Assembly (NCBI RefSeq): GCF_001306055.1
Contig: NZ_LGHJ01000015.1
Span: forward strand, 1-32,000
DNA from: Bellilinea caldifistulae
GTDB taxonomy: Bacteria; Chloroflexota; Anaerolineae; Anaerolineales; Anaerolineaceae
Direction of reading: 5' to 3'
DNA: 32,000 bases
Position numbers and translations under genes: made by a program. Shown piece by piece: positions 3,413 through 28,232 of the stretch (position 1 is its first letter; each line of letters starts with the position of its first letter). Under the pieces are notes generated by a model. That model ran no database searches and was not told where the DNA came from. It worked only from the letters and a program-made list of their open reading frames with translations.

Positions 3413-4974
3413 TCACGGGGTTGCCGGTTCAGTCGAGCGGATACCGCTCATCAGCCGGCCAATGGCGTATTTATCGAACGCTTCGCGCGGCAGGATGCCC
3501 AGAATTTCGCCGCGGTAGATCACGGCAATGCGGTCGCTGAGCAGCATTAATTCGTCCAGGTCTTCCGAGATCAGCAAGGTGGCTTGTTTTTGGGCTTTGC
3601 GCTGCAGAATTTTCTGGTAGACAAAGTCCATCGAGGGAATATCCAGCCCGCGGGTGGGGTTGTGAGCGACCAGCAAATCGGCGTTCATCGAAAAGGCGCG
3701 CGCAATCATCACCCGCTGAATGTTGCCGCCGGAGAGATTGCCGCCGGGTTCTTCCGGTCCGCCGGTTTTGATGTTGTACTCGCTAATCTGCTCGCGGGTT
3801 TTCTGGTAGACCGTTTTCCAGTTGATGAAGCGGCCGTCGCTGTAGGGCGCTGGCGGTGTACCCCCAGAATGAGGTTTTGGGCAACGCTGGCTTTGGGCAA
3901 AAAGCCGTCGTGCAGGCGGTCTTCGGGGATGTAGGAAAGGCCGCGGCGCAGCCGTTCAGCGACCGGCAAACCGGTGACGTCTTTGCCGTTTTGTTCGATC
4001 TTGCCACTGGTGGGCGGCACAATCCCGGCAGCCACCTCGGCCAGTTCGCGCTGACCATTACCCGCCACGCCGGCGATGCCAAAAATTTCCCCCGGAAAGA
4101 TATCAAAGGAAACATCTTTGAGACGCGGCACACCCTCTTTGCTGATCAGGTTGACCTGACTGAGACGCAAGATGGGGGCTGCGGTGGTATCCACCTCGCC
4201 AAAAGTTTTGGTGTCGCGCGCAAAATAAACGCTCTTTTCAATGTTCATTTGCTCGCCGACCATGGCGCGCACGAAGACGTCTTCCGAAGCGTCTTTGCGG
4301 TCAAGGGTGGTGATGTTGCGCCCTTCGCGCAGCACGGTGATGCGGTCGCACACACTCAGTACCTCGCGCAGTTTGTGGGTGATGAAGACGATGCTCAGGC
4401 CGTCGTTAACCATCACCCGCAGCGATTCGAACAGGGCATCCACTTCCTGCGGGGTCAGGTTGGTGGTCGGTTCGTCGAGAATCAAAATCTTCACGCCGCG
4501 GTAAAGGGCTTTGAGGATTTCCACCTTTTGGCGGGTGCCAATCGGCAGTGTCGAGATGACCGCATTCAAATCCACCGGCAACCCAAAGCGTTGACACAAT
4601 TCTTCCACTTTTCTGGTTTCCGGTTCCAGTTTCATCGTGTAACGATGGGTGATGCCAGTGCCCAGCACAATGTTTTCCAGTACGGTGTAATTGGAAATTT
4701 GTAAAAAGTGCTGGTGTACCATGCCAATGCCGCGGTTGAGGGCATCCCGCGGGCCGTGAATTTCAATCTTCTCGCCGTTCAGGTAAATGTCTCCCTGATC
4801 TTTGCGGTAAAGGCCGTAGAGGATGTTCATCAGGGTGGTTTTGCCGGCGCCGTTGCCGCCCAGCAGGCCGTGAATCTCGCCGGGCAGCAGTGAAAAGGAT
4901 ACATCATCCAGCGCCACCAGTTTATCGAAAGTTTTACGAATATTCCTTAATTCCAGAATCGGTTGTTTTTCCAT
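3413..4974 (-). pseudogene. Double-NBD ABC transporter ATP-binding protein (NupO/RnsB-like) interrupted by a 1-nt frameshift near 3845-3848
   Basis: The N-terminal ORF 3709-4974 has Walker A GGNGAGKTT and a normal NBD1. It turns to nonsense after ...QNLILGVHRQRP. A different frame then reads YSDGRFINWKTVYQKTREQISEYNIKTGGPEEPGGNLSGGNIQRVMIARAFSMNADLLVAHNPTRGLD..., the ABC signature and Walker B region of NBD2, through to stop 3413. Total span is 1562 nt, one short of a multiple of 3. This may be a genuine pseudogene or a homopolymer (GGG 3845-3847) sequencing error. Confidence 0.8.
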
Positions 4975-4992: not shown

Positions 4993-5185
4993 CTGCGGGG
5001 GCTGTTTACTGGACAGGGCGGATGGCTTGGCTGCGTCGGCTCGCGGCGAGGTAAACTGCTCCATGTCATCCCGACCAAAGGGACACTTGCCAGTGCGGGC
5101 GGGGGTTCTCCCCCAACCTCCGCAACGGCTTTGCGGGAGATCGCCACGCTCGCTGCACTCGCTTATGGTGACGTAAACCGTTTAC
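4993..5185 (+). repeat. Copy (one degenerate plus one good unit) of the GC-rich intergenic repeat family, inside the BMP operon spacer
   Basis: 5118-5182 reads CTCCGCAACGGCTTTGCGGGAGATCGCCACGCTCGCTGCACTCGCTTATGGTGACGTAAACCGTT. This matches the core of the 63-bp array at 8409-9068 and the reverse complement of the 99-bp units at 23185-23489. 5082-5118 matches 8373-8408. 4993-5060 is a diverged unit (CTGCGGGG...GCTCGCGGCGAGGTAAACTG). Confidence 0.7.
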
Positions 5186-6496: not shown

Positions 6497-6544
6497 TTAC
6501 GAATTAAATAAAAAATTGGGGACGTTCTTCCTGAATCAGGTCTG

Positions 6545-6650
6545 TTTGGGGCAGGGCGGGAGATTCCCCTGCAGTGGCGAGTTTCGCTCACGCTCGGGGT
6601 GACGTGAATAAGGACATGTCATTGTGAGCCGCCCTCAGGCTGTGTGGTAA
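6545..6650. repeat. Degenerate member of the same repeat family in the divergent SBP/GH13 intergenic region
   Basis: GGCGGGAGATTCCCCTGCAGTGGCGAGTTTCGCTCACGCTCGGGGTGACGTGAATAAGGACATGTCATTGTGAGCCGCCC. It shares GCGGGAGA...CGCTC...GGTGACGT with the 63-bp unit, and GTCATTGTGAGC with the GACATTGCGAGCGAGC motif at 23189. Identity is clearly lower than for the other loci. Confidence 0.35.
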
Positions 6651-6769
6651 TTTCCCGCAGAGCCGTCGGGGAGGCAGGGGCACAACAGGGGCAGTTCACC
6701 GTCGGGAGAGTGCCGGTTTGATGGTAAAATCCACCCATCCCCGTGTTTATCAAGGAAGGAGAGGGAAGG

Positions 6770-8236
6770 ATGACCGCTTCTTTTATCACACCCGAGTGGG
6801 TTCAAGACGCTGTCTTTTACCAGATTTTTCCAGACCGGTTTGCTGCCAGCCCCATTTTGGAAAAGCCGAACAACCTCGAAGCGTGGGACGCTCCGCCGAC
6901 CCCTCACGGCTTCAAAGGCGGTGACCTGCTGGGTGTGGCGGAGAAACTGGATTATTTGCAGGATTTGGGCGTGAACGCCATTTACTTTACGCCGGTATTC
7001 CAATCGGCTTCCAATCATCGCTACCACACCCACGATTATTTTCGGGTTGACCCGTTGTTAGGTGGAGATGCTGCCCTGCGGCGCTTATTAAAGGAAGCCC
7101 ACCGCCGAGGCATCAAAATTGTGCTGGATGGCGTCTTCAATCACGCCAGCCGTGGGTTCTTCCAGTTCAATCACATTCTGGAATGCGGGGCGCAGTCACC
7201 CTATCTGGATTGGTTCCGCGTAAAGGGTTTTCCCCTGAACGCTTACCAGGGCAAACCCAACTACGACTGCTGGTGGGGGCTGGCGGCTCTGCCGGAGTTC
7301 AACCATCAAAATCCGCAGGTCAGGCGTTTCATCTTCGATGTGGCGCGCTACTGGCTGGAACAGGGCATTGACGGCTGGCGGCTGGATGTGCCCTTCTGCG
7401 TGGATGATGACCGTTTCTGGCAGGAATTTCGGCAGGTGGTCAAGCAGACCAATCCCGATGCCTACATCACCGGTGAAATCCCGTGGGATGCCGAGCGCTG
7501 GCTGCAGGGCGATCAGTTCGATGGGGTGATGAATTACCTGCTCACCTACGCCTGCTGGGGATTCTTCGGCGGCGAGAAGATGGATAAGGAACTGGTCGGC
7601 CACTGGTACGAACACGGCCCGCAGTACTTTACGCCGCAGGCGGATCGGTTTGCCGAAAACGTCAGGGCGTTGTTGAAGAAGTATCCCCGCCCGGCCGTGC
7701 AGTCCCAGTTGAATCTGCTGGATAGCCACGATACCGCCCGGTTTCTTTCCATCGCCGGGGGAGATAAGCGGCTGCAACGGCTGGCGGCGCTGTTCTTATT
7801 CACTTATCCGGGCGCACCCTGTATTTATTACGGCGATGAAATCGGGCTGGAAGGCGGCAAAGACCCCGACTGCCGGCGCGCTTTCCCGTGGGATGAAAAC
7901 CGCTGGGACAACGACCTGCGCGATTTTTACAGGACGCTGGCCGGCCTGCGCCATCAACATGCCGTACTGCGTCACGGCTCATTTGAGGTGCTGTATGCGG
8001 CCGGACAGGTGTTGGTTTACCTGCGGCAGCAGGAAGGGGAGGCAGCGGTCATCGTCATCAACCGCTCGGCGGCTGCTTCGTTTGAATTGGATTTACCGGT
8101 AACGGATGTTCTGCCGGAGGGGATGGCTTTTCGGAATGCAATCGGGCAGGGAGGCGCTGCGGTTGGAGAGGGGCGCTTGCGCGGGTTGACTCTGCCGCCG
8201 CTTTCGGCGGCTGTATTGCTGCCGGGCAATGGATAA
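6770..8236 (+). CDS. Glycoside hydrolase family 13 (alpha-amylase superfamily; neopullulanase/cyclomaltodextrinase/alpha-glucosidase-like)
   Basis: ATG at 6770 follows GGAAGGAGAGGGAAGG. All four GH13 conserved regions are present: DGVFNHAS (I), GWRLDVPF (II, nucleophile Asp), ITGEIPWD (III, acid/base Glu) and [10 protein letters not shown] (IV). The N-terminal [16 protein letters not shown] is typical. No signal peptide is seen. Confidence 0.9.
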
Positions 8237-8408
8237 CCGGTGAGCGGACGGGTTTGAAGCCGCGATTTCAGCCCAGAGAATAACTTGAGGTTGGGATAAG
8301 TTTGCTCGTGTTAAGCCGAATGCAGCGGCGCTAGCGCCGCCCTATACCACTTAATATCACCCCAAGAGCAGCGACACTTGCCAGCGCTGGCGGGGGTCCC
8401 CCCCAGCC

Positions 8409-9068
8409 CTGCGGGAGACCGCCACGCTCGCTGCGCTCGCTCGCGGTGACGTAAACCGTTATGGAACGGCTCTGCGGGAGACCGCCACGCTCGCTGCGCT
8501 CGCTCGCGGTGACGTATACCGTTATGGAACGGCTCTGCGGGAGACCGCCACGCTCGCTGCGCTCGCTCGCGGTGACGTAAACCGTTATGGAACGGCTCTG
8601 CGGGAGACCGCCACGCTCGCTGCGCTCGCTCGCGGTGACGTAAACCGTTATGGAACGGCCCTGCGGGAGACCGCCACACTCGCTGCGCTCGCGGTGACGT
8701 AAACCGTTATGGAACGGCTCTGCGGGAGACCGCCACGCTCGCTGCGCTCGCTCGCGGTGACGTAAACCGTTATGGAACGGCTCTGCGGGAGACCGCCACG
8801 CTCGCTGCGCTCGCTCGCGGTGACGTAAACCGTTATGGAACGGCCCTGCGGGAGACCGCCACGCTCGCTGCGCTCGCTCGCGGTGACGTAAACCGTTATG
8901 GAACGGCTCTGCGGGAGACCGCCACACTCGCTGCGCTCGCGGTGACGTAAACCGTTATGGAACGGCTCTGCGGGAGACCGCCACACTCGCTGCGCTCGCG
9001 GTGACGTAAACCGTTATGGAACGGCCCTGCGGGAGACCGCCACACTCGCTGCGCTCGCTCGCGGTGAC
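8409..9068 (+). repeat. Tandem array: 11 head-to-tail copies of a 63-bp (or 59-bp) unit
   Basis: CTGCGGGAGACC recurs at 8409, 8472, 8535, 8598, 8661, 8720, 8783, 8846, 8909, 8968 and 9027. Consensus: CTGCGGGAGACCGCCACGCTCGCTGCGCTCGCTCGCGGTGACGTAAACCGTTATGGAACGGCT. There are no unique spacers between units. Confidence 0.95.
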
Positions 9069-9209
9069 ATTAATCCAATGAACGCCGCGCCGCCTGACGG
9101 CGACATCTCCCTCGAATTGTTTGCGCAGCGGGCGGGGCAAAAACCCTTCCAAAACAACCAATCATCCGATTAATCAATTCATTTGACGTTCAAAAACAAC
9201 CCGTTTTTC

Positions 9210-9238
9210 TTGACTCTCTCATCAGATTATGCTATATT
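9210..9238 (+). promoter_or_regulatory. Candidate sigma-70-type promoter of the Opp/Dpp-type ABC operon
   Basis: TTGACT (9210-9215), a 17-nt spacer, then TATATT (9233-9238), in an AT-rich stretch about 160 nt upstream of the SBP start codon. Confidence 0.45.
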
Positions 9239-9261
9239 GCTTGCACTTTCCATCCGATTTA

Positions 9262-9331
9262 TTTACAATTAGGATAGTTGTAAACTCACAGATGCGCAGC
9301 GGATTCCGTCCAAATCCGCAGACTCTGTGAG
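9262..9331 (+). promoter_or_regulatory. Structured leader / possible operator upstream of the large binding-protein gene
   Basis: Inverted repeat TTTACAA (9262-9268) N9 TTGTAAA (9278-9284). It is immediately followed by a nested hairpin: CTCACAGA (9285-9292) ... TCTGTGAG (9324-9331), enclosing GCGGATT (9299-9305) / AATCCGC (9313-9319). Confidence 0.3.
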
Positions 9332-9395
9332 CCGTCAAAATCGGAGGAAAGCCTCTGATCAATCATCCTAAATCCCATATAGAAGGAGGAGAAAC

Positions 9396-11957
9396 ATGAA
9401 GCGTTATACACTTCTGGTCGTTGGACTGTTGGTCATTGCCAGCATGGTCCTTTCGGCCTGCCAGCAGGGCACTCAGGTGGTGACCCAGGTGGTGACGGAA
9501 GAAGTCGAAGTGGTCAAGACGGTTGAGGTCGAAAAGACCGTTGAAGTCGTCGTGACCCCCGAACCCACCCGCGTTGACCGCAACGGTGCCTGGGTGGACA
9601 CCATCGTCGTCGTTGAGGAGCCGAGTGCGGATGCGGCGGTAACCCGCTTACAGAACAAGGACATTGATCTGTATGCCTTCACCGTCAGCAATGCGGAAGT
9701 GGCCGCCAAGGTTGCCGCCAGCCCCGAACTCAAATCGGAGCGCACGTTCGGTTCCTACAACGAATTGACCTTCAACCCGGCTGGCCCCATCTTCGAAGGC
9801 ACCGGCAAACTTAACCCCTTTGCCGTGCCGGCCGTTCGCGAGGCGATGAACTGGCTGGTTGACCGCGACTACATCGTGCAGGAAATCATGAAGGGTCTGG
9901 GTGTCCCGCGCTACACACCGTTCAACGTGGCCTCTTCGGACTATGCCCGCCTGGCGGAAGTCGTGCGCAAAGTTGAGTTGAAGTACGCCTACGACAAAGA
10001 AAAAGCCCAGCAAGTCATTTCTGCGGAAATGGAAAAATTGGGCGCGACACTTGTGGACGGCAAGTGGCAGTACAACGGCGAACCGGTTGAAATCATCGTC
10101 CTGATCCGTGTTGAAGACGAACGCCGCCAGGTTGGTGATTACGTCGCCAATCAACTGGAAGATATTGGCTTCACCGTGACCCGCGATTACAAGACCTCCG
10201 CCGAAGCCTCGCCAATTTGGATCCGCGGTAATCCCAATGACGGCAAATGGCACGTCTACACCGGCGGCTGGATCACCACGGCTGTACCGCGCGACCTGGG
10301 TGACAACTTCTCGTTCTTCTACACCAATCGTGGTTTGCCGCAGCCGTTGTGGCAGGCCTACACCCCCAGCGAGGAATTCGACAAAGTCGCCCTCGACCTG
10401 GAAAACCGCGCTTACAAGACCATTGAAGAGCGCACCCAATTGATGGGTAAAGCGCTCGAACTGGCGCTGCAAGACTCGGTGCGCGTCTGGCTGGTCGACC
10501 GCGCCAGCATCACCCCCATGCGGGCTGAATTGCAAGTGGCTTCCGACCTCTACGGCGCTGTTTACGGCTCGCAGTTGTGGCCGTACACCATCCGCCGCGA
10601 AGGTGAAGTGGGCGGCTCCGTGACCGTCGCCATGCCCAGCATCCTCGTCGAGCCGTGGAACGCCCTCAGCGGTACCAACTGGATCTACGACCAGATGCTG
10701 ATTCGTGGCACGGGCGAATACGGCCAGGTGTACGATCCGTTCACTGGTCTGACCTACCCGAACCGCATTGAGAAAGCCGAAGTGGTGGTTCAGGAGGGCC
10801 TGCCGGTTGGCAAGACCCTGGACTGGTTGACGCTTGAATTTGCTCCGTCCATCGAAGTACCGGGCGACGCCTGGGCCGACTGGGATGCCGAGCAGCAGCG
10901 CTTCATCACCGTGGCTGAGAAATTCCCCGAAGGCACTACCGCCCTGCGCAAGAGCGTAGTCTATTACCCGGCTGACCTGTACGAAAAGGTCAAATGGCAC
11001 GATGGCAGCCCCTTCTCCGTGGGCGATGTGGTGATGGGCATGATTCTCACCTTTGATCTTGGTAAGGAAGCCAGCCCCTACTACGACGCTTCTCAGGTGC
11101 CGACCCTGGAGTCCTTCCTGTCGTCCTTCAAGGGCGTCAAGATCGTCTCCACCGACCCGCTGGTCATCGAGACCTACTCCGACCTGTGGAATCTGGATGC
11201 TGAGCTCAACGTGAGCGACTGGTGGCCGTTCTACGCTCAGGGTCAGGCGGCCTGGCATGCTCTGGCCATCGGCCTGAAAGCCGACGGCGCCGGTGAAGCC
11301 GCCTTCTCGGCTGCGAAAGCTGATGAACTGCAGGTCGAATGGCTGTCCTACATCTCCGGCCCGACCATTGACATCCTCAAAGCCAAACTGGATGAGGCAA
11401 GCAGTGAAGGGTTCATCCCCTACGCTCCGACCCTCGGTGAGTATGTCAGCGCCGACGAAGCAGCTGCCCGCTACGCCAATCTGGCCGAGTGGTTCCGCCA
11501 GCGCGGTCACTTCTGGATCGGCACGAATGTGTTCTATCTGGAACGCGCCTTCCCGGTGGAAGGTACGGTTGTGCTGCGCCGCTACAACGGTTACTCTGAA
11601 CCGGCCGACAAATGGCTGCGCTTCTCCGCTCCGCCAATCGCCGAGGTGGAAGTGGATGGTGACGACCGCGTGACCGCCGGTAGCGAAGCCTCGTTCGATG
11701 TCTTCGTGGACTTCGAGGGGCAGCCCTACCCGCTGGCCGATATTGACAATGTCAAATATCTGGTCTTCGATGCCAACGGTGAACTGGTACTGGTTGGTCA
11801 GGCGGAAGCCGTGGAAGACGGCCTGTTCCAGGTCAATCTGAGCGGTGAAGACACCGGCAAACTGGCGGAAGGCACCACCCGCCTTGAGGTGGTGGTGGTT
11901 TCCAAACGGGTTGCTGTGCCGTCCTTCGCCTCCTTCCAGTTTGTGACCGCCCCGTAA
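9396..11957 (+). CDS. Family-5 (Opp/Dpp/Nik-type) ABC substrate-binding lipoprotein, unusually large (853 aa)
   Basis: GAAGGAGGAG RBS is present. MKRYTLLVVGLLVIASMVLSAC gives a lipoprotein signal. A V/E/T-rich repetitive linker follows (VVTQVVTEEVEVVKTVEVEKTVEVVVTPEP). The body resembles SBP_bac_5, and there is an extra C-terminal beta-rich segment of about 130 aa. It is followed by two permeases and two ATPases. Confidence 0.9.
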   Translation: MKRYTLLVVGLLVIASMVLSACQQGTQVVTQVVTEEVEVVKTVEVEKTVEVVVTPEPTRVDRNGAWVDTIVVVEEPSADAAVTRLQNKDIDLYAFTVSNAEVAAKVAASPELKSERTFGSYNELTFNPAGPIFEGTGKLNPFAVPAVREAMNWLVDRDYIVQEIMKGLGVPRYTPFNVASSDYARLAEVVRKVELKYAYDKEKAQQVISAEMEKLGATLVDGKWQYNGEPVEIIVLIRVEDERRQVGDYVANQLEDIGFTVTRDYKTSAEASPIWIRGNPNDGKWHVYTGGWITTAVPRDLGDNFSFFYTNRGLPQPLWQAYTPSEEFDKVALDLENRAYKTIEERTQLMGKALELALQDSVRVWLVDRASITPMRAELQVASDLYGAVYGSQLWPYTIRREGEVGGSVTVAMPSILVEPWNALSGTNWIYDQMLIRGTGEYGQVYDPFTGLTYPNRIEKAEVVVQEGLPVGKTLDWLTLEFAPSIEVPGDAWADWDAEQQRFITVAEKFPEGTTALRKSVVYYPADLYEKVKWHDGSPFSVGDVVMGMILTFDLGKEASPYYDASQVPTLESFLSSFKGVKIVSTDPLVIETYSDLWNLDAELNVSDWWPFYAQGQAAWHALAIGLKADGAGEAAFSAAKADELQVEWLSYISGPTIDILKAKLDEASSEGFIPYAPTLGEYVSADEAAARYANLAEWFRQRGHFWIGTNVFYLERAFPVEGTVVLRRYNGYSEPADKWLRFSAPPIAEVEVDGDDRVTAGSEASFDVFVDFEGQPYPLADIDNVKYLVFDANGELVLVGQAEAVEDGLFQVNLSGEDTGKLAEGTTRLEVVVVSKRVAVPSFASFQFVTAP

Positions 11958-14524: not shown

Positions 14525-15499
14525 ATGCCAGAAAAAACATTACTGCGTGTCGAAGATTTGAAACTCTACTTTCGGGCCACCCGCGGTGTGGTGCAGGCGG
14601 TGGATGGGGTTTATTTCACCCTCAACCCCAACGAAGCGATGGTCATCATCGGCGAATCGGGCTGCGGCAAAAGCTCCATGGCCAAGGCACTGCTGCGTTT
14701 GTTACCCCGCAATGTGCATACCTACTCCGGCAAGGTCTTTCTCAACGGCACGGAATTAATATCCATGTCCGACGAGGAATACCGCCAGCAGATCCGCTGG
14801 CTGAAGATCTCGATGGTACCCCAGGCTGCCATGAATGCCCTCAACCCGGTGTTGCGGGTGGGCGATCAGGTAGCCGAGCCGATGATGGTGCATCACGGCG
14901 TCCGCAAGGAAGAAGCGCTGGTGCAGGCTGCCAACATGTTCCAGCGGGTGGGTGTGCCGGTGGACTTTCTGACCCGTTATCCGTTTGAATTGAGCGGCGG
15001 AATGCGCCAGCGGGCGGCCATCGCCATGGCGCTGGTCACAGCGCCGGATCTGGTCATTCTGGACGAACCGACCTCCGCCCTGGATGTGCTGACCCAGGCA
15101 AACATCATGAACCTGCTCAAGCGCATCAAGAAGGAAATTGCTACCAGTTTCATCCTGATCACCCACGATATTGCCACTTCCAGCGAACTGGCCGACCGGG
15201 TGGGGGTGATGTACGCCGGGCAGATGGTGGAATTGAGCGATGCTCACCGCTTTTTCACCGCCCCGCTGCATCCCTATTCGCAAAAGTTGATGGCCTCGGT
15301 GCCCAAACTGCGTAGCACGGTTGAACCGGAATTCATCACCGGTCAGCCGCCCAGCCTGATCAACCCGCCGACCGGCTGCCGCTTTGCAGCCCGCTGCCCG
15401 CTACGTTTTGAAAAATGCGATCAAGACCCGCCCATGTTCCAGCACCCGGATGGCCGGCAGGTCAAATGCTGGTTGTACGAAAAAGAGGCAAGGAGTTAA
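14525..15499 (+). CDS. ABC transporter ATP-binding protein, OppD/DppD-like
   Basis: Walker [10 protein letters not shown], signature LSGGMRQR, Walker B LVILDEPTSALD, and a C-terminal oligopeptide-type extension (PLHPYSQKL…GCRFAARCP). ATG at 14525 lies 5 nt after the upstream stop. Confidence 0.9.
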   Translation: MPEKTLLRVEDLKLYFRATRGVVQAVDGVYFTLNPNEAMVIIGESGCGKSSMAKALLRLLPRNVHTYSGKVFLNGTELISMSDEEYRQQIRWLKISMVPQAAMNALNPVLRVGDQVAEPMMVHHGVRKEEALVQAANMFQRVGVPVDFLTRYPFELSGGMRQRAAIAMALVTAPDLVILDEPTSALDVLTQANIMNLLKRIKKEIATSFILITHDIATSSELADRVGVMYAGQMVELSDAHRFFTAPLHPYSQKLMASVPKLRSTVEPEFITGQPPSLINPPTGCRFAARCPLRFEKCDQDPPMFQHPDGRQVKCWLYEKEARS

Positions 15500-15501
15500 G
15501 C

Positions 15502-16539
15502 ATGACCGTTCAAGATGCCGTTGTTCAACAGGAAACCTTGTCCGGCGCCGATGCGCTGAGCAATGCTCCGCTGCTGTCCATTCAAAATTTGCGGGTGTGG
15601 TTCGAGCTGCGCCGCTTTGGTTTTGGCCATGCCGGTTATGTCAAAGCGGTGGATGGTGTCAGCTTTGATCTGCAGCAGGGCGAGGCGGTGGCTGTGGTGG
15701 GTGAGTCGGGCTGCGGTAAATCCAGCCTGATGAAGACAATTTTGGGCCTCAACCGTCCCACTGAGGGCGATGTGGTCTTTCAGGGCAAGTACCGCATCAG
15801 TCAAATGGATGCCAAGACCCTGCGCTGGTACCGCCGGCAGGTCGGCTATGTCCAGCAAGACCCCTACGGCGCTCTGCCGCCGTTTATGAACGTCCAGCGC
15901 ATTCTGGAAGAGCCGATGATCGTTGCCGGTATCAGCGACAAGAAGGAGCGGCTGGAACGCATTCATAAAGTGCTGACCGAAGTCAAAATGACGCCGGTGG
16001 AAGAATTCCTGCCCAAATTCCCGCACATGATCAGCGGTGGGCAGCAGCAGCGGGTGGTCATCGCCCGGGCAATGATCCTCGAACCCAAACTGCTGGTGGC
16101 CGATGAGCCGGTTTCGATGCTGGATGCCTCGGTGCGGGTGGAAATTCTCAAACTGCTGCGCGGTTTGCAGGAATCGCACAATCTGGGTGTGATTTACATT
16201 ACTCACGACCTTTCGACGGTGCGCTACTTCTCCGAGCGTATTTTTGTGATGTACGCCGGGCAGATTGTGGAGAAGTCGCCGGTGGATAACCTGTTGCAGG
16301 ACGCCAAACACCCCTACACCCACGCTCTGCTGGCGGCAACTTCGGACCCGGATGCACGCAATGCAGAAACCTTCAAAGAAGTGCCGCCGGGTGAGCCGCC
16401 CAGTCTGGTTAAACCGCCGACCGGTTGCCGCTTCCATCCGCGCTGTCCGCACATCATCCGCGGGGAGTGCGATGTGAACGTGCCGCCCGAATTTGAAGTC
16501 GGCCCCGATCACACGGCGGCGTGCTGGCTGTATAAGTAA
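15502..16539 (+). CDS. ABC transporter ATP-binding protein, OppF/DppF-like
   Basis: Walker [10 protein letters not shown], signature ISGGQQQR, Walker [13 protein letters not shown], and C-terminal KHPYTHALL…[15 protein letters not shown] is upstream of the ATG at 15502. Confidence 0.9.
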
Positions 16540-16548
16540 TCAACAACG

Positions 16549-16755
16549 ATGATGCTCCGCTTGGGTCCAAAGGGAATGATGGCAATCGGCGCCGGGTTGT
16601 TGTTCTTCGGCGCCGCTGCTCCATTCCTGATGATTTTACGCATCTGGGAAACCTCCTTCTGGCTGAGTTTCCTTTCGTATGCGGCTTCGATCAGCGGGCT
16701 GGTAATCGGCTTTTTGGGAATTTTCCTCTACATCCGCATTCACCGGCGGGATTGA
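16549..16755 (+). CDS. Small hypothetical membrane protein (68 aa, two predicted TM helices)
   Basis: It starts 9 nt after the OppF-like stop and ends about 28 nt before a strong terminator. It has two hydrophobic segments (AIGAGLLFFGAAAPFLMIL and LSYAASISGLVIGFLGIFLYI). No clear SD and no recognised family. Confidence 0.4.
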   Translation: MMLRLGPKGMMAIGAGLLFFGAAAPFLMILRIWETSFWLSFLSYAASISGLVIGFLGIFLYIRIHRRD

Positions 16756-16783
16756 GGGATGTAAACGGGTTGCGTTCAACCCA

Positions 16784-16822
16784 TTCAGCCCGCCTTACCC
16801 CACAGGCGGGCTGAATTTTTTT
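16784..16822 (+). terminator. Rho-independent terminator of the Opp/Dpp-type operon
   Basis: Arms TTCAGCCCGCC (16784-16794) / GGCGGGCTGAA (16805-16815) with a 10-nt loop, followed by TTTTTTT (16816-22). Confidence 0.8.
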
Positions 16823-16944
16823 CATCGGACGAACAGAGGGCAAAGTGATTCGACGATGGCGGAAAGCAGCCGGTTGCAGCAGCCTTCCGGCTTTGGTTGC
16901 GGTGAAAAATCCCACAATTCACAACCGGAAAACGCGCCTTTTGG

Positions 16945-18255
16945 CTACAACGGGGGCGGCTGCCAGCCGCCTAGGGTTTGCTCCAGCAGGTGCGCCACTG
17001 CCAGCGCCACATCCTCACGCCACGGGCGGGCGACTACCTGCACGCCAATTGGCATTCCCTCCGGCGAGGTTGCGCAGCGGACAACCACTGCCGGGTAACC
17101 GGTCAGGCTATAGGGCAGGGTATAGGGGATGCGCCCTTCCGGTTGGCCGTGCGGTTGGGCGGGTAATTCGGCTGCCGGAGTCAGAATCACGTCCTGCCGT
17201 GCCATGAATCCGATCATCGCACGGCGGAAGCGATCCCAAATGAACAAATGGCGGGCGACTTCATCGCCATCCAGTTGCGAACGGCTGCTGCTGACCCATT
17301 CCTCATCGTCCTCGGATTCGACTCGCGCCCAATACTGACGGGTGATCTCGTAGGCTTCTTCAATGCGCGGCGGCAGGTTTTCTTCGACCTGTGCCCCGTG
17401 TTCAGCCAGCAGCCGGGCGGCACGCCGACAGGCGGCTGCTGTTTCGGGCGTGGGTTCGGCTTCGGCGTGATGAGTGTAGAAAGCAACCCGCAGACCGTCA
17501 ATTTTTACCTGCCGCCAGTCCGCCAGCGGCATGGGAATGACGCTGGCATCCTGCCAGTCCACCCCGCTGAGAACCGGCAGCACCAGCGCCAGATCCTCCA
17601 CAAAGCGCGCCATCGGGCCGATGGTGGTGCGCGGATCGTTCATGGCGCTGATGAACGGAAAATGACCGGTCAACGGCAGCCGGCCGGTGGTGGGTTTCAA
17701 GCCGGTTATGCCGCAGGCATGAGCCGGTTGCCGGATGCTCCCGCCCGAATCGGAGCCCAGCCCCAGCGGGCTGCCGCAGGCGGCGATGATGGCGGCTTCG
17801 CCGCTGCTGCTGCCGCACGGGCTGTAAGCGGGGTTATAGGGGTTGTGGGTGCGGCCATACACCTCGTTCTCGACCATTACATTGGTCTTTCCCAGCAAAA
17901 TGGCGCCGGCTTGCCGCATCCGGCTCACCACGCTGGCATCTCTGACCGGGATGCGGTTTTTGTACCGGGCTTCTCCGCCGGTACAGGGCAGGCCGGCGGC
18001 ATCAATCCAGTCCTTGACGGTGAAGGGAACGCCGTGCAAGGGGCCAACGGCTTCGCCGCGTGCCAGGGTTGCATCCGCCTTTACTGCCTGCGCCAGGGCT
18101 TCCTCAGCCGACAGAGCAACCACCGCATTTAAGCCGGGATTGACCTGCTCAATGCGCAGAAGGTGGGCTTCAATCACTTCCCGCGCGGAAATTTGCTTCC
18201 GGCGGATGCGCCGGGCCAGTTCCGATGCCGATAGACGGACGATTTCTTCGTTCAA
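16945..18255 (-). CDS. Amidase-signature (AS) family amidase (GatA-like fold, stand-alone)
   Basis: Contains the AS motif …GSSSGEAAIIAACGSPLGLGSDSGGSIRQPA… and the N-terminal …ISAREVIEAHLLRIEQVNPGLNAV… typical of amidases. The start is placed at TTG 18255, with GGAGAG 5 nt upstream. The ORF-track start at 18468 would overlap the upstream gene by 176 nt and add non-homologous sequence. Confidence 0.8.
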   Translation of the reverse strand: MNEEIVRLSASELARRIRRKQISAREVIEAHLLRIEQVNPGLNAVVALSAEEALAQAVKADATLARGEAVGPLHGVPFTVKDWIDAAGLPCTGGEARYKNRIPVRDASVVSRMRQAGAILLGKTNVMVENEVYGRTHNPYNPAYSPCGSSSGEAAIIAACGSPLGLGSDSGGSIRQPAHACGITGLKPTTGRLPLTGHFPFISAMNDPRTTIGPMARFVEDLALVLPVLSGVDWQDASVIPMPLADWRQVKIDGLRVAFYTHHAEAEPTPETAAACRRAARLLAEHGAQVEENLPPRIEEAYEITRQYWARVESEDDEEWVSSSRSQLDGDEVARHLFIWDRFRRAMIGFMARQDVILTPAAELPAQPHGQPEGRIPYTLPYSLTGYPAVVVRCATSPEGMPIGVQVVARPWREDVALAVAHLLEQTLGGWQPPPL

Positions 18256-18292
18256 ATTTTCTCTCCGGAACGTAAAATTGCTTGCTTTGGGA

Positions 18293-21145
18293 TTAGCGTA
18301 CCCGGAATTGAACCGGCTCGGATACGGTCTGGTTGCCGGCCAGATCCACGGCGATGACTTCGAGGCGGTGCTCGCCGCGGCGGGCGTCCCACACCAGCGC
18401 AAAGGGCGGTTGGCTGGTCTCGCCGATGATGCGACCGTCCAGCCGCCATTCCACCCGTGCCAGCCCAACCGTATCGCTGACTTCGGCTTGCAGGGTAATG
18501 GTGGACTGTCCGGTAAATACCTGACCCTCCACCGGGTAGGGAATGCGTACCTGCGGCGGCGTGTTATCCACGGTGACTTGCAAGAGACTGGTCTCGACGC
18601 GCTGATCGCGGCGCACCACCAGCAGGCGGATCACGTACAGACCTTCCAGATTGCGCGTATCCCAGACGGCCAGCCGGCCGTTTTCCACTGGCTGAGTGGT
18701 GCTTTCTTGAATGCTGATCCACGCGGTGGGGTTAATCCCCTGCCCGACCTGAAGGCTGTACGATGCAAATGCCTCTCCGGCGGCTCTGCCGGTGATTTCT
18801 ACCTGACCGCCCACCACGCTGAAGGGGCGCGGCTGGCTGATTTGAGCATTGGGGTTGGGAGAGGGCTGCTGAACCAGATCGTATTCGCTGGGCGGCAGGG
18901 GTAAACCGGCCGTCCGCGCCCACGCCTGAGCCTGCGGCGGCACCACCAGAAAAACGCGTTCTTCCACCAGTTCAGGTGGGGTGAAGACGGTTGCCAGCCG
19001 ACCGGTTTCGCGGTTGATTTGGAAACGGCGGTAGAGCGAATCGATTCCGCCGGGCTGATTGCTTTCCAGAAAGACCTCGTTTACCCGGCTGGGGCAGGCA
19101 TCTCCCGGCAGTAAACCGGAGGGATCGCAGACTTCCACCCGCACGACACCCGGCGGCATTGGCCACGATTGCACCGGCTGATTGCGGTGCAGGTATTGCA
19201 TCAAGGCGTGCCAGATGCCGGCCGCCGGGAAAGCCCCCGGCGTCGGGGCATCCGCAACCTCGCTGCCCAGCCAGACGACTGCCACTGCTTGCGGGGTGTA
19301 GCCGGCTGCCCAGCTCGAACGTCCGCCGGCGGCCTGTCCGCTTTTTGCCGCCGCCGGGCGGCCAATTTCCAGCGGGTTGGGGTAGCCCAGGGTACGCCAG
19401 CGGGCGGCTTCGTCGCTGAATACGTGGTGGACAAGGTAGGCCAGTTGAGCGCTGACCACCGTGCGGCTGGCGGTCTGTTCCGGCATGGAAAGGGGATTGC
19501 CGCTGTAATCTTCCACCCGCAGCACCCAGCGCGGCTGCGGCAGGCCGGTTTCATCGCTGACCACGCCGTTGAGCGTGCCTGAGGCGGCAAATACGCTGTA
19601 CGCATGGGCCAGTTCCAGCAGGGGCAGCGGCTCACCCTCGCTGAGCAGGGTGTCTTCTTCAACCGGCAGGCGGTACTGTTCGATGCCCAGGTTGTGAGCG
19701 GTGGCGGTCAGCGCGGCAGCCCCAATTTGAGCATAGACGGTTCGCAAAGCGGCCCAATCATCGTTGACCAGCGCGCTGCGCAGGCGCAGCGGCCCATCGT
19801 ACTCCTCCGGCGGCTCATCAGCGGTCTCTCCCTCGCCGGTCAGCGGAATGTCCCACACCAGCGTAGCCGGGGAGAGGCCGCGCGCAAAACCGGCCAGCGC
19901 CAGAAACGGATTTTGCAGGCTGCCGGGCGGGTGCGGGCTTTGCTGAGAACTTTCCCCCGCTGGCGAGGTATCCCCGCTGAAAGCCAGCACTTCCCCGTTG
20001 AGCGGGTCGAGGATCACGGCACTGGCCTGCCACACACCGGCGGAGCGGGGGGTGCGCAGGGGCAGGGCCGGCAACAGGCGAGCGGCTTCACACTCGCCGG
20101 AAAGAGCAGCTGGCGGATCGCTCAGGCGTGCCAGTTGGGATTGCATGGTACACACGACCTGGCTTTGCAGGTCGGCGTCCAAACTGGTGATGATGCGCAG
20201 TCCGCCGCGCTCCAATCGGCTGCGACCGAGCCATTCGGCAATGCGGTTGATCACCTGAGCGGTGAAGGCCGGCGCCCGGCTTTCGACCGGCAGCGGTGCG
20301 CGCAATTCCAGCCATGCCTGCCGGGCCTGCTGGTAGGTTGGTTGATCGAGCAGTCCCAGCCCCAGCATGCGCAGCAGGATGGTTTGCTGATTTTCCAGCG
20401 CGGCGGCAGGTGCATCCAGCGGATTGAGAGCGGGTGATTCGAGGGCTGCCAGCAGCAGGGCGACTTCGGCGGGGTTGAGCGCGCTGGCGGGTTTCCCCAA
20501 AAAAGCCTGGGCAGCCGAGTCGGCCCCGTAGGTCAGGTGACCGAAGGGAGCGCTGTTCAGGTACCATTCCAGCACCTGCTCTTTTCCGTATGCGTTGACG
20601 ATTTGATCGCCCAGCAGGCGCAGGCGCAGGGTGCGCTGCCAGCCGGGTGGCTCATCCGGCGGCATCAGCCAGTCCTCTGCCAGCCGCTCGGCCAGCGTGA
20701 CAGGACGGGGGTCGTCCAGGTGGTCCCAACGCACGCCGCTGCGCTGCCAGAAAAGCGGGTCGAACAGGGCAACAACTCCTTCCACCAGCAGCGGGCTGAA
20801 AGCCTCACCGTGGGCCGGGTTAAGGTACAGGTAACGGCGCGTAATTCCCGGATTTTCCAGCGTGAGCAGCACCACCTGCCCGGTACGGTCGTACAGGCGG
20901 GTTGGGCGGGTGAGTGCGCCGTCGTTCGGGTCGAGCAGGCTTTCCAGCGCGTACACCGAGGGCAGGCTGGCGCTCAATTGGGCGTAGAAGAAGGACAACC
21001 CCAGCACCGCCATGCCCAACAGGCTCAAGCCGGCTGCCAGCAGCCCCCACAGACTGCGGCGCGCTCCGTTCAGCAGCCGGGTACGCCGGGCTGTCCGCCG
21101 CAATTGGCGATTTTTGACCAGCAGGATGGTTTCGAGACGGCGCAC
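18293..21145 (-). CDS. Class-A penicillin-binding-protein-like membrane protein (GT51-like and transpeptidase-like domains, catalytic motifs mostly substituted) with C-terminal Ig-like domains
   Basis: An N-terminal TM is present (LWGLLAAGLSLLGMAVLGLSFF). The GT51 core is recognisable (…GKEQVLEWYLNSAPFGHLTYGADSAAQAFLGKPASALNPAEVALLLAALESPALNP). So is the TP core (…VILDPLNGEVLAFSG…PGSLQNPFLALAGFARGLSPATLVWD… and AAKSGQAAGGRSSWAAGYTPQ). The C-terminus looks like Big-type beta domains (VTVDNTPPQVRIPYPVEG…IAVDLAGNQT). GTG start lies 3 nt after the upstream TGA. Confidence 0.85.
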   Translation of the reverse strand: MRRLETILLVKNRQLRRTARRTRLLNGARRSLWGLLAAGLSLLGMAVLGLSFFYAQLSASLPSVYALESLLDPNDGALTRPTRLYDRTGQVVLLTLENPGITRRYLYLNPAHGEAFSPLLVEGVVALFDPLFWQRSGVRWDHLDDPRPVTLAERLAEDWLMPPDEPPGWQRTLRLRLLGDQIVNAYGKEQVLEWYLNSAPFGHLTYGADSAAQAFLGKPASALNPAEVALLLAALESPALNPLDAPAAALENQQTILLRMLGLGLLDQPTYQQARQAWLELRAPLPVESRAPAFTAQVINRIAEWLGRSRLERGGLRIITSLDADLQSQVVCTMQSQLARLSDPPAALSGECEAARLLPALPLRTPRSAGVWQASAVILDPLNGEVLAFSGDTSPAGESSQQSPHPPGSLQNPFLALAGFARGLSPATLVWDIPLTGEGETADEPPEEYDGPLRLRSALVNDDWAALRTVYAQIGAAALTATAHNLGIEQYRLPVEEDTLLSEGEPLPLLELAHAYSVFAASGTLNGVVSDETGLPQPRWVLRVEDYSGNPLSMPEQTASRTVVSAQLAYLVHHVFSDEAARWRTLGYPNPLEIGRPAAAKSGQAAGGRSSWAAGYTPQAVAVVWLGSEVADAPTPGAFPAAGIWHALMQYLHRNQPVQSWPMPPGVVRVEVCDPSGLLPGDACPSRVNEVFLESNQPGGIDSLYRRFQINRETGRLATVFTPPELVEERVFLVVPPQAQAWARTAGLPLPPSEYDLVQQPSPNPNAQISQPRPFSVVGGQVEITGRAAGEAFASYSLQVGQGINPTAWISIQESTTQPVENGRLAVWDTRNLEGLYVIRLLVVRRDQRVETSLLQVTVDNTPPQVRIPYPVEGQVFTGQSTITLQAEVSDTVGLARVEWRLDGRIIGETSQPPFALVWDARRGEHRLEVIAVDLAGNQTVSEPVQFRVR

Positions 21146-21148
21146 AGG

Positions 21149-22993
21149 TCAGGGGGTGGAAAGAGGAGGTGAGGTTGGAGAAGCCGGCTGGGGTGTAAAC
21201 GTGCGGGTGGCAGGCGGCGTTCGGGTGGGGGTTGGTGTGCGGGTGGGCTGGCGGGTTGGGGTGGGTGTAAGGGTGCGGGTGGGCGGAGGGGTATCGGTGG
21301 GGGTGACCAGCACACTTAACTGGCGGCGGGCCTGCTCCAGCCATTCGGCCGGCACAACCTCTTCGCCCAGTTCCAGCAGGCGCTGCCAGTCGTTGATGGC
21401 AGCCCGCACATTGAGCGGTTCGAGGGAAATTGCCCGCCAGTAGTACAGCTGGGCTTTGCGTTCGTTACTGACCGCATCGCCTTCGATTTTGTTGAGCTGG
21501 ATGTAGGCATCTCCGTAGGCTTCCAGCGCCAGCAATGCCCGGCTGCGCCACAGGGCGGCTTCGAAGGAGCGCGGGCGGATGGTCAGGGCGCGGTTGAAGT
21601 CGCTGAGGGCAGCCTGAGCATCTCCGCGATTCAAGTAGAGTTTGCCGCGTTCCATGACCACCTCAAAATTGAGCCGGTCAAGGCGCAGGGCTTCGTCAAA
21701 GACTCGCAGGGCTTTTTCTTCCTCGCCGCTTTCCAGGTAGGCTTTTCCGAGCAGGGCATACACGCGCGGTTCGGGTGGCTGGGCAAAGCGTTCGTAAATC
21801 TCCAGCGGCTCAATGGACTGGCGGTACAGCCCGTTAGCCTGTTGGGCTTCACCCAGTGTCAGGTAAGCCGGCAGGAGCGTTAAATCGAGTTGATTGGCGC
21901 GTTGGGCATCGGCCAGGGCGGCTTCGGCGTTCCCCTGTGCCAGCAGAACGCGGGCGCGGTATTCGTACACCAGCGGGGAGTCGGGCAGCAGTTCGGCGGC
22001 GCGGTCGAGGTTTTGGAGGGCGGCTTCGTAGCGTTCTTCGTTCAGGTCGAGTTGCGCCAGTTCCAGATAGGCCTCGGCCAGATTGGGGTCTAGGCTGAGG
22101 GCGGTTTGCAGGTCTTTGCGGATGTCCTCGATTTTGGGATTGCTGCCCGCCAGCCCGGCGCGCGCCCGCCCTAAAAAGGCCGGGGCAAAGTTTGGGCTGG
22201 CGCGGATGGCTTGATTGTAGGCGTTGAGCGCGGCGCCGATTTGTCCGCTGCGGCGCTCGGCTTCTCCCAGCCAGTAGTACAGGTCGGGGGCGGTGGAGTC
22301 GGCTTCGATTGCCTGCTGGAAGTATTGGGCGGCGCGCGCCCACTCGCCGCGCTCAAAAGCGCGCAGACCGATGGCGTAAGCCTCAATGACGGCGTGGGGA
22401 GTGCGCACGTAGGCGGCGGTGGGGGTGTAGGTGGCCTGTAAACCTTCCCACGGCGGAGTGGGTAACCGCAGGGTTGGGGTGAGGGTTGGCAGACCGGCCG
22501 TCGGCTGACTGGTTTCGGCGATGACCGGCCGGAAGGAGATGGTTGGACGCTGGCTGATTTCGCGCGGACGGAGCAGCTGCGGGGCGAACAAGACCAGCAG
22601 GAAGATGGCAATGACCGCCGCGGCTGCCAGCCCGTAAAGCGCGAGGCGCTTGTAGGAAATTGGCGGGCGCTGGACGGCCGGTTTTTCGATCTTGACCTGC
22701 CACTGACGCCGTTGCAGGCGTGGCGGGACGATGAGGGCCGGGTCGGGCGGCAGCACGCCCAGCAGGGTCAGCCCGCGCCGGGCAGCCTGATTGTTGGGAT
22801 CACGTTTGAGCGCTTCTTTGAGGCAGTAAATTCGTTCTTTGCGGGTTTCCACCACTGCGCTCATCCACAGCCAGTACTGCGGGTTGGACTGGTCGCGGCG
22901 CAGCAGGCGAGTGAGCAGGTCGCGCGCCCGCTGGCGGTCGCCTTCTTCCAGCGCGCGAAAGACTTCCTCGAAAGCCGAGTCGGAAGTGGACAT
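21149..22993 (-). CDS. Membrane-anchored tetratricopeptide-repeat (TPR) protein with a Pro/Thr-rich C-terminal tail
   Basis: 614 aa. An N-terminal soluble TPR-like segment is followed by one TM (LALYGLAAAAVIAIFLLVLFA). Then come roughly ten or more TPR-like repeats (…AEAYLELAQLDLNEERYEAALQNLDRAAELLPDSPLVYEYRARVLLAQGN…). The tail reads TPTDTPPPTRTLTPTPTRQPTRTPTPTRTPPATRTFTPQP. Confidence 0.85.
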   Translation of the reverse strand: MSTSDSAFEEVFRALEEGDRQRARDLLTRLLRRDQSNPQYWLWMSAVVETRKERIYCLKEALKRDPNNQAARRGLTLLGVLPPDPALIVPPRLQRRQWQVKIEKPAVQRPPISYKRLALYGLAAAAVIAIFLLVLFAPQLLRPREISQRPTISFRPVIAETSQPTAGLPTLTPTLRLPTPPWEGLQATYTPTAAYVRTPHAVIEAYAIGLRAFERGEWARAAQYFQQAIEADSTAPDLYYWLGEAERRSGQIGAALNAYNQAIRASPNFAPAFLGRARAGLAGSNPKIEDIRKDLQTALSLDPNLAEAYLELAQLDLNEERYEAALQNLDRAAELLPDSPLVYEYRARVLLAQGNAEAALADAQRANQLDLTLLPAYLTLGEAQQANGLYRQSIEPLEIYERFAQPPEPRVYALLGKAYLESGEEEKALRVFDEALRLDRLNFEVVMERGKLYLNRGDAQAALSDFNRALTIRPRSFEAALWRSRALLALEAYGDAYIQLNKIEGDAVSNERKAQLYYWRAISLEPLNVRAAINDWQRLLELGEEVVPAEWLEQARRQLSVLVTPTDTPPPTRTLTPTPTRQPTRTPTPTRTPPATRTFTPQPASPTSPPLSTP

Positions 22994-23089
22994 GTTATCA
23001 GTTTAGCACAGGCTCAAAGAGCGGGCAAGCCACTGCGGGCTGCGGACGGGTTTACGAAATTGTCAGGGCGGCGGTGTTGCCGGGGAAAA

Positions 23090-25729: not shown

Positions 25730-25739
25730 GGAAGATGCA

Positions 25740-28229: not shown

Positions 28230-28232
28230 GGC

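Follow-up and report, generated by a model that had tools for sequence, protein, structure and literature searches.

In enterobacteria, clusters of repetitive extragenic palindromic (REP) sequences and bacterial interspersed mosaic elements (BIMEs) act as 3' barriers or insulators, and BIME-2 clusters bind gyrase. To our knowledge, mosaic repeats of the REP/BIME type have been studied almost only in Proteobacteria. Variable number tandem repeats (VNTRs) of the mycobacterial interspersed repetitive unit (MIRU) type in Mycobacterium tuberculosis are direct repeats of 40-100 bp, which reside at several intergenic loci and vary in copy number between strains. Tandemly reiterated clusters of REPs and of REP doublets forming hairpins (REPINs) have precedent (PMC3116915; PMC3733652). 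In Pseudomonas fluorescens SBW25, Bertels and Rainey described REPINs that form 'highly ordered tandemly repeated units' together with their flanking sequence, and arrays of a single, evenly spaced REP type are also known (PMC3116915). For REPs tagged by the tetranucleotide CGTC, stems of 8-9 bp, loops of 4-5 nt and a CCA tail have been reported, and clusters or head-tail arrangements are rare or negligible among them (Di Nocera et al. 2013, PMC3733652). Here, we analyze an array of short direct repeats from Bellilinea caldifistulae (Chloroflexota, Anaerolineae), which is located in the first 32,000 nt of contig NZ_LGHJ01000015.1. This whole stretch, read on the forward strand, is referred to as the window. 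The array (array B, at locus B) is flanked by a gene for a GH13 hydrolase and by genes for an Opp-type ABC transporter. It is real, non-coding and strain-variable, and it behaves like a bacterial minisatellite and not like a new kind of genetic system. We consider it likely that the array arose through local amplification of the right-hand module of a REP/BIME-like mosaic repeat of Bellilinea. This family has not been described previously, while the kind of element is already known.

Tandem Repeats Finder reported a period of 63 with 10.7 copies, 95% matches and a score of 1180 for positions 8409-9068. Cutting the array at CTGCGGGAGACC yielded 11 units starting at 8409, 8472, 8535, 8598, 8661, 8720, 8783, 8846, 8909, 8968 and 9027, with spacings of 63, 63, 63, 63, 59, 63, 63, 63, 59 and 59 nt. 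The original prediction, made from the letters of the window alone, had listed these starts and spacings along with a set of variants, and all of them were reproduced. The units abut directly, without spacers. Each one reads CTGCGGGAG (the right half of a central hairpin, HP2), followed by the stem-loop HP3, GAC and the linker GTAAACCGTTATGGAACGGCT; a unit of 63 nt comprises a degenerate HP2, represented by its right half, HP3 and then GTAAACCGTTAT plus GG. The loop of HP3 is reduced to 16 nt in the 59-nt units. GGCT is replaced by GGCC ahead of the units starting at 8661, 8846 and 9027, and GTATACC is found at 8514-8520. All three 59-nt units carry CACACT and are short of 4 nt in the GCTC/CGCT tract. 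The last unit, in which CACACT is combined with the full tract in the window, carries CACGCT in both metagenome strains. Tandem Repeats Finder also detected a higher-order period of 248 nt (2.7 copies at 96%), which equals 63+63+63+59, i.e., a block of four units. Such a four-unit block is present in duplicate, with 99% identity between positions 8438-8685 and 8686-8933. A 26-nt core pattern matched 14 times in the window, where 0.00 matches were expected from shuffled sequences.

Four assemblies yielded four different arrangements of the array. To the 11 units of the window, DF967971.1 (assembly GCA_001050215.2) adds one 63-nt unit and an aberrant 42-nt unit, giving 13 in total. The JGI contig Ga0226835_1000077, derived from a sister strain with flanks that are 98.1-98.7% identical, contains nine (five of 63 nt, three of 59 nt and the last unit). 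An ENA contig (ERZ795108) enters the array from the right and covers at least six units, with four consecutive units of 59 nt, before it ends there. Logan contigs end inside arrays B and C, the latter being a second array of the window described further below. The G/A site and the 4-nt deletion are combined differently in different strains, and the 59-nt variant was seen only inside array B, where it is clustered. Because the 59-nt units are clustered, a block of 99% identity is present and the variants are recombined, array B is best attributed to unequal crossover or slippage and not to insertion from a master copy. The mosaic had indeed been ascribed to repeated unequal crossover or gene conversion, and slippage is added here as a further route.

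In a syntenic congeneric contig (L119, Bellilinea sp., GH13 86% identical), the gene order is the same, the gap between the GH13 and opp genes measures 240 nt, and the region contains no tandem repeat, though it has the same TTGACT-17-TATATT promoter. The single element at locus A of the window is also absent from the equivalent intergenic region of L119. By this comparison the array block, which is bounded in its entirety by the stop codon of GH13 on one side and the conserved promoter of opp on the other, appears as an insertion relative to the congeneric contig.

The window and DF967971.1 probably represent separate assemblies of one strain or of two strains that are nearly identical. Exact matches of encoded proteins place the window in B. 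caldifistulae, on this scaffold. In the 17 kb that were compared (window positions 14713-32000), identity was 100% and 99.99%, and DF967971.1 showed one gap, with 96 nt absent from a coding tandem repeat (21224-21319). If stutter during assembly, or over-expansion from only one or two true copies, had produced the array, it could leave such traces as are seen here: near-identical assemblies with discordant counts (11 units against 13, with an odd 42-nt unit among the latter) and short-read contigs that break in the array. However, three independent assemblies span 9 to 13 units with internally consistent variant patterns, a fourth contig enters the array for at least six units, and linked variants such as the 4-nt deletion with its accompanying single-nucleotide exchange are not expected from stutter. 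We thus regard an artefact as extremely improbable. The earlier statement that the array is no assembly stutter stands in so far as the array never collapses to one or two units, but needs qualification in view of the discordant counts and the broken short-read contigs. For locus C, the copy number is equal in DF967971.1 and in the window, and short-read contigs end at this locus, too.

Alignment with copies from congeneric contigs placed the array unit within a larger element of ~93-108 nt, consisting of TTAAT, HP1, the central hairpin HP2, HP3 and a linker. HP1 follows the scheme GTC-A-NNNN-GAGCGAAGCGA-NNNN-T-CTCC and has a long version with an insert starting with GACACTTGC, which corresponds to the 'leader' of the original prediction. 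HP2 reads CTCCGCAA-CGGCT-TTGCGGAG and HP3 reads GAG-A-NNNN-CACGCTCGCTGCGCTCGCTC-NNNN-T-GAC. The linker occurs as GTAAACCG... (GTAAACC), as GTTAAT or with both forms joined (GTAAACCAATTAAT in the congeneric contig L128). Since HP3, when reverse-complemented, is a stem-loop of the same kind as HP1, the full element constitutes an inverted pair whose spacer is structured. The left-end consensus of the family, TTAATGTCACC, and the right terminus, GGTGACATTAA, are inverted relative to each other, and loci B and C are bordered by terminal inverted repeats of the form TTAAT(A/G)TCACC ... GGTGAC(A/G)TTAA(T). The element boundaries, between TTAAT and GTCACC on the one side and between GGTGAC and GTAAACC on the other, are sharp and common to the copies.

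Locus B starts with one complete element (8350-8450), behind which only the right-hand part is repeated. The unit core recurs as a single copy at locus A (5137-5162) and, inverted, in the three 99-nt units of locus C, which altogether extends over 23062-23520 and contains partial copies in addition to these units. Direct reading of the sequence showed that both changes in the tail of locus C are compensatory relative to other copies. The right terminus GGTGACATTAA was found at 9063, 23272, 23371 and 23470, in full agreement with the earlier observation that array B ends in exactly the junction of the 99-bp array at 23272. Recurrence of the leader near 5082-5118 was confirmed at ~80-85% identity but did not yield a match at three or fewer mismatches over 29 nt. 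Through this shared leader and the shared junction the family had only been glimpsed, and the view of the unit as an isolated novel sequence has to be given up. A fourth locus, D, had not been listed before and resides in the divergent intergenic region between a Bmp-type gene and the GH13 gene. Only these four loci were found in 50 kb of contiguous B. caldifistulae DNA. Their contexts differ, with A inside an operon and C and D in divergent promoter regions. All family loci seen are intergenic, and many contigs from related metagenome-assembled genomes (MAGs) carry a copy. Note that a first core pattern, run over the genome collection, proved too permissive, since most of its at least 117 matches were chance matches in GC-rich coding DNA. 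The GCCGCGCCGCCTGACGGCGAC-type motif to the right of array B was also found beside the 99-nt array (23476-23520, minus strand) and in elements of the congeneric contigs L128 and L129. The features are compiled in Table 1.

Table 1. Array B, its surroundings and further copies of the element family in the window.
Feature	Position	Strand	Description
Array B, 11 head-to-tail units	8409-9068	+	Eight units of 63 nt, the last one (cut at GGTGAC) included, plus three of 59 nt
HP3 stem-loop of unit 1 (example for all units)	8418-8447	+	ACCGC (8418-8422) pairs with GCGGT (8443-8447); 20-nt loop CACGCTCGCTGCGCTCGCTC
59-nt variant unit	8661-8719	+	4 nt of the GCTC/CGCT tract lost; linked G>A (CACACT)
Two successive 59-nt variant units	8909-9026	+	8909-8967 and 8968-9026
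Last unit	9027-9074	+	CACACT with full tract; ends in proper right terminus GGTGAC-ATTAAT, not in internal linker
Left terminus of founding element, CTTAAT-ATCACC	8350-8361	+	Inverted counterpart of right terminus GGTGAC-ATTAAT
Left arm of complete element at locus B ('leader')	8356-8408	+	Long-type HP1 with GACACTTGCCAG... insert; aligns with arms 5065-5118 and 23140-23191 (minus)
Fragment of second arm variant, GCCGCGCCGCCTGACGGCGAC	9084-9104	+	GCCGCC-TGAC-GGCGGC loop type; then ACATCTCCC, the end of a left arm
Perfect 16-bp palindrome GCGGCGCTAGCGCCGC	8325-8340		89 nt past GH13 stop; outside the repeat element
Promoter of opp-type operon, sigma-70-like TTGACT-17-TATATT	9210-9238	+	Downstream of array; conserved in array-less L119
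Locus A, single complete element	5065-5185	+	GTCATCC...GGTGAC plus GTAAACCGTTTAC; between genes for Bmp-type binding protein and ABC ATPase (both minus)
Locus C, three tandem full 99-nt units (HP1-HP2-HP3-GTTAAT)	23195-23491	-	Orientation opposite to 63-nt array; between divergent TPR and DegT genes
Locus C tail, one further element	23062-23191	-	Outer pair GTCAGG...CCTGAC, not GTCACC...GGTGAC; central hairpin CCCGCAA/TTGCGGG
Locus D, degenerate junction copy	6540-6680	+	HP3-like arm ending GGGGTGAC (...CGGGGTGAC), linker, HP1-like GTCATTGTGAG...GGTAATTTCCC; weak nhmmer match, E 0.0018

Tandem amplification is a trait of the element family and not confined to locus B. An array of full 93-nt units lies ~125 kb upstream of the window, at ~360.7 kb of DF967971.1, and comprises 5.4 copies in this scaffold (L136, 13469-13973) and 2.3 copies in the sister strain Ga0226835 (L137, 13475-13693). 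Array B and the 93-nt array therefore share a strain-dependent repeat number, as is characteristic of VNTRs. In contig L128, full units form an array with a period of 105 nt, and a further array, with a period of 208 nt, reiterates HP2-HP3-GTAAAC along with another ~145 nt of DNA. Contig L129 repeats the layout of locus B, with a complete element followed by 63-nt units lacking the left arm. These units carry a different HP3 loop (GCCGCC-TGC-GGCGGC) and are located between a SWIM-domain gene and a gene for a small membrane protein; at the same site, B. caldifistulae has neither an array nor an element of the family.

From these data, the following course of events can be proposed for locus B. 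A full element, or two adjacent copies, would have inserted between the GH13 and opp genes. The resulting direct repeats, 63 nt apart, would then have been multiplied by unequal recombination or replication slippage. The 59-nt variant may have originated from a slip of 4 nt in the (GCTC)n tract linked to the G>A exchange, and duplication of the 248-nt block of four units along with crossovers would have shuffled the variants. The array probably has no dedicated function; at most, its hairpins may shield the opp operon from the GH13 transcript in the manner of a 3' barrier or insulator.

Several points weigh against this interpretation. The difference between 11 and 13 units could be an assembly error and not biology, and the 11 copies stated originally, although correct for the window, are not a secure number. 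That the array is neutral is something we infer and not a result. The 63-nt module without left arm is also arrayed in another Bellilinea species at an unrelated locus (L129), and the same module plus extra DNA forms the 208-nt period in a third Bellilinea (L128). This recurrence of the short module could mean that it is copied by an active, sequence-specific mechanism and not only by passive recombination. Finally, the near-invariant loop of HP3 and its covarying stem, as seen in sequences from five MAG-labelled lineages, hint at recognition by a protein or at a function.

An active mechanism of this kind would imply that the HP2-HP3-GTAAACC module itself is mobile, that an enzyme (e.g., a RAYT-like HUH nuclease or another transposase) recognizes the stem-loop and a (C/T)GTC head, and that arrays grow by self-targeted insertion of new copies beside existing ones. 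This would account for the tandem copies of the short module that three Bellilinea genomes carry at loci unrelated to one another, and likewise for the shared sharp boundaries of the elements. Furthermore, relatives of the core reside in clear MITEs (miniature inverted-repeat transposable elements) in Chloroflexota MAGs, so the wider family has transposed. On the other hand, the window contains neither a transposase nor an HUH gene. Domains of RAYT (REP-associated tyrosine transposase) type or of other transposases were found neither in the Pfam scans of the window nor among the Pfam labels of other B. caldifistulae stretches, a search that covered ~85 kb of the 3.7-Mb genome. No target duplication was recognizable at loci A-C, where L119, the only array-less genome for A and B, is too diverged for base-exact junctions. 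Confinement and clustering of the 59-nt variant in array B and the 99%-identical block of four units fit local duplication and not insertion from a master copy. Moreover, for CGTC-tagged REPs, whose head type comes closest, no accompanying transposase genes are reported (PMC3733652). Unit-by-unit propagation is thus unlikely, and we maintain local amplification as the explanation of array B.

The MITEs just mentioned were found in the Chloroflexota MAGs JBBIKK01, JBBITE01 and JAIOAQ01, in which the HP1/HP3 pair is embedded in an element of ~145 nt (longer in JBBITE01). In contigs of these MAGs (L024, L027, L028, L038, L039, L074, L079 and others), the terminal inverted repeat of the element, GTAACTACCTACC...GGTAGGTAGTTAC, is perfect over 13 bp, and 8-bp target duplications, e.g., CTCTGCGC, CAAGAGCA, CTTGCGCT and AAATTATA, flank the element. 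On account of these two features, the ~145-nt element qualifies as a true MITE. The stem-loop alone reaches further. GA-TTGC-CACGCTCGCTGCGCTCGCTC-GCAA-TGAC was detected in contigs from MAGs labelled as Cyanobacteriota (L042, L054, L062), Burkholderiaceae (L058), Coxiellaceae (L071), Alistipes (L072) and Chloroflexia (L094), labels for which contamination during binning is possible. In this cross-phylum set, the loop is almost invariant and the stem varies in a compensatory manner (ATTGC/GCAAT, ATCGC/GCGAT); in many cases, an arm of the form GTCATTGCGAG...GGCAATC lies upstream as its partner.

HP3 is a real stem-loop with a covarying stem. In an alignment of 21 members, drawn from the window, from congeneric contigs and from MAGs labelled Chloroflexota, Cyanobacteriota, Burkholderiaceae, Coxiellaceae and Alistipes, HP3 spans 37 nt with a 5-bp stem, and 93.3% of the stem cells pair, a value that none of 500 shuffles reached. 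In two stem pairs, C-G alternates with U-A through changes of both partners (16 cells), and the first pair is A-U in 17 of the 21 members. When the partner strand was slid by 1-3 columns as a control, pairing dropped to 17-65%. Stems of HP1 are compensatory as well (ACCCT/AGGGT, ACCCC/GGGGT, ATTTC/GAAAT, ATTGC/GCAAT). Since HP1 and HP3 of one element can differ in their stems, each arm forms a stem-loop of its own. A long hairpin between the arms as the only structure was rejected on the basis of such independent covariation, exemplified by ATTTC/GAAAT in HP1 together with ACCGC/GCGGT in HP3 in L129.

The conserved loop with its covarying stem across MAG lineages, together with the arrays of the short module at unrelated loci in three congeneric genomes, raises the question whether HP3 is the recognition element of a widespread enzyme or binding protein, by which the 63-nt module would be copied head-to-tail in a process distinct from the transposition of RAYT/REPIN hairpins. 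We regard this as unlikely. Alternatively, the stem-loops might bind a nucleoid or topology protein or a regulator and turn the array into a topological or transcriptional insulator between GH13 and the opp promoter. Its placement in precisely the interval from a gene end to the promoter that follows, the highly conserved loop with covarying stem in distant MAGs and precedents for REPs and BIMEs (PMC2817692) would be in line with such a role. Yet the array is missing from a congeneric genome that shares gene order and promoter, the copy number varies freely from 9 to 13, and other copies of the family reside in the different contexts of loci A, C and D. The proposal that 63 bp, as six helical turns, would place a bound factor on one face of the DNA also fails, since the phase moves by 4 bp with every unit of 59 nt and strains vary in the number, position and order of these units; helical phasing is thereby abolished. 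Taken together, a protein-binding array is improbable.

Folding analyses underline the difference between complete elements and array units. The complete first element at locus B folds into a long imperfect hairpin with -62.5 kcal/mol (z -2.96) on the minus strand and -50.2 kcal/mol (z -1.95) on the plus strand, and one 99-nt unit of locus C folds at -42.2 kcal/mol (z -3.65). Full elements surpass shuffled sequences (z -2.0 to -3.65), and they alone form the long two-arm hairpin that characterizes REPINs. The 63-nt unit, which holds one arm only, folds no better than shuffles (z -1.26 and -0.56), and the same is true for the whole array of 731 nt (z -0.70 and -1.12).

These values also bear on the idea that the array is transcribed into small structured RNAs or into a spacer-less CRISPR-like or sponge RNA (CRISPR, short palindromic repeats that are clustered and regularly interspaced). 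A regular period, small recurrent hairpins in the predicted fold (GCGG-GAGA-CCGC and CCGUU-AUGG-AACGG) and some stems whose G-T pairs function solely in RNA, as G-U (HP3 of locus C, ATTGC/GTGGT), speak for it. Rfam, however, gave no match at the gathering score in the whole window and none at E<=1 for 8230-9400, the unit has neither promoter nor terminator, the fold is no better than that of shuffles, cas genes and spacers are lacking, and the unit length varies. Such an RNA array is therefore highly improbable, and an array of small RNAs with promoters and terminators of their own was rejected as unlikely, as such signals are missing inside. In fact, the promoter of the opp operon downstream was the only promoter-like site, and no terminator was called within the array. 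The window lacks tRNA and tmRNA genes.

A coding function of the array was also rejected. The 198-aa open reading frame (ORF) on the minus strand yielded only sub-threshold Pfam noise, in stretches of zero, and no family at threshold. Its two database relatives are both spurious ORFs over related arrays, and ORF length tracks the copy number, with 233 aa in DF967971.1 (L124, 6189-6890) and 156 aa in the sister strain (L125, 6420-6890). The hypothetical proteins of these two lengths that public gene tables place over the array on the minus strand are spurious calls. The minus-strand ORFs had rightly been taken for artefacts. A CRISPR was dismissed, given the lack of spacers and of cas domains in the window. 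Pfam scans of the window revealed no genes for transposase, Cas, Rep or Par proteins, and an iteron or partition site was rejected with GH13 and an Opp-type transporter as neighbours. The sole gene for a ParA fold in the window (30463-31533) matches a ParA model described as NUBPL iron-transfer P-loop NTPase and has, in addition, a domain for iron-sulfur cluster assembly (FeS_assembly_P). Phage origin was discarded, the single match to a viral contig being a chance match within coding sequence and without the stem. Literature searches with motif strings and typical translations returned unrelated primer matches only, and no repeat family of this sort is described for Anaerolineae in the literature searched. 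The unit had not been recognized as a described REP/BIME, MITE, CRISPR or iteron family. This holds with regard to Rfam and to the strings searched in the literature, but the unit is a truncated module of a dispersed REP/BIME-like family.

Some further observations concern the surroundings of array B and other parts of the window. The palindrome at 8325-8340, which had been reported as perfect, was read directly in the window and is imperfect in the sister strain (GCGGTGCT... / GCGGTGCTAGCGCCGC), where it is still G-U compatible on the plus strand. It may be a candidate hairpin at the 3' end of the GH13 transcript; no T-run follows, and no terminator-like site was called there. The GH13 gene is called with a product of 488 aa, and the ORF from the first possible start comprises 497 aa. 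An 18/36-nt tandem repeat (21191-21301) resides inside a gene for a TPR protein. Its product has 614 aa in the window and in three metagenome contigs and 582 aa in DF967971.1, which lacks 96 nt; this is a second repeat-length difference between the near-identical assemblies. Positions 28944-29581, inside a gene for a DUF5666-domain protein (28931-30175, minus), hold nested tandem repeats whose periods are 21, 24, 51 and 234 nt (1.9 copies at 99% identity for the 234-nt period); they represent coding variation unrelated to array B. Both the window and DF967971.1 have an ABC-transporter ATPase (3413-4974, minus) divided between two ORFs, 421 and 99 aa long, and the sister strain and one congeneric contig encode a single protein of 520 aa; this points to a frameshift, a pseudogene or a sequencing error common to both assemblies.

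Nothing in these results overturns current understanding, and their use lies in annotation, quality control of assemblies and strain typing. The 233-aa 'protein' over the array in the GenBank record and similar calls on arrays of the family are spurious. As the arrays break short-read contigs and give discordant copy numbers, assemblies of Bellilinea and other Anaerolineae are unreliable at such loci. Several of the arrays differ between strains that are ~98.5% identical, and they could therefore be used as VNTR markers for Bellilinea in anaerobic digesters. Mosaic repeats of the REP/BIME type are extended to the Anaerolineae, and the stem-loop that is common to several phyla according to MAG labels provides a lead to a putative partner protein.

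How does the Bellilinea family compare with known systems? Like a CRISPR, array B consists of regularly spaced direct repeats containing a palindrome, but the repeat is twice as long, spacers and cas genes are lacking, and the variants are length polymorphisms of the repeat. With MITEs, the element shares inverted termini (TTAATGTCACC and GGTGACATTAA), and its relatives in MAGs have the GTAACTACCTACC...GGTAGGTAGTTAC termini and 8-bp duplications. It differs in that no target duplication was seen at the loci of the window and no parent insertion sequence is known, and tandem amplification of an internal part is atypical for MITEs. The shorter unit types among MIRUs are deletion derivatives of the long type and in this respect comparable to the short units of Bellilinea. 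MIRUs, however, are not built of palindromic stem-loops, often overlap flanking stop and start codons and bear no sequence relation to the Bellilinea arrays. CGTC-tagged REPs resemble the Bellilinea family in having a head tetranucleotide outside the stem (here CGTC in the reverse complement of HP3 and TGTC, a listed variant, in HP1), an A-T pair as first stem pair, mainly head-head dimers with a structured spacer and a distribution over several phyla. Because stem (5 bp), loop (11-21 nt) and tail (CTCC) differ in Bellilinea, we do not file the family under the CGTC-tagged superfamily. Compared with REPs and BIMEs in general, the Bellilinea stem is short, with only 5 bp and a conserved loop of 16-21 nt, the element has three hairpins, the array consists of head-to-tail repeats of a single arm, the ~85 kb searched yielded no RAYT for the family, and the host belongs to the Anaerolineae. 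These differences notwithstanding, the REP/BIME type provides the closest match. HP3 is a short imperfect palindrome of the size that defines REPs (~20-60 nt), and the family consists of short, GC-rich, intergenic stem-loops that are dispersed, form mosaic clusters and occur as tandem units, some of which drag flanking DNA along. Just as in REPINs, an inverted pair, here HP1 with HP3, gives rise to a longer hairpin.

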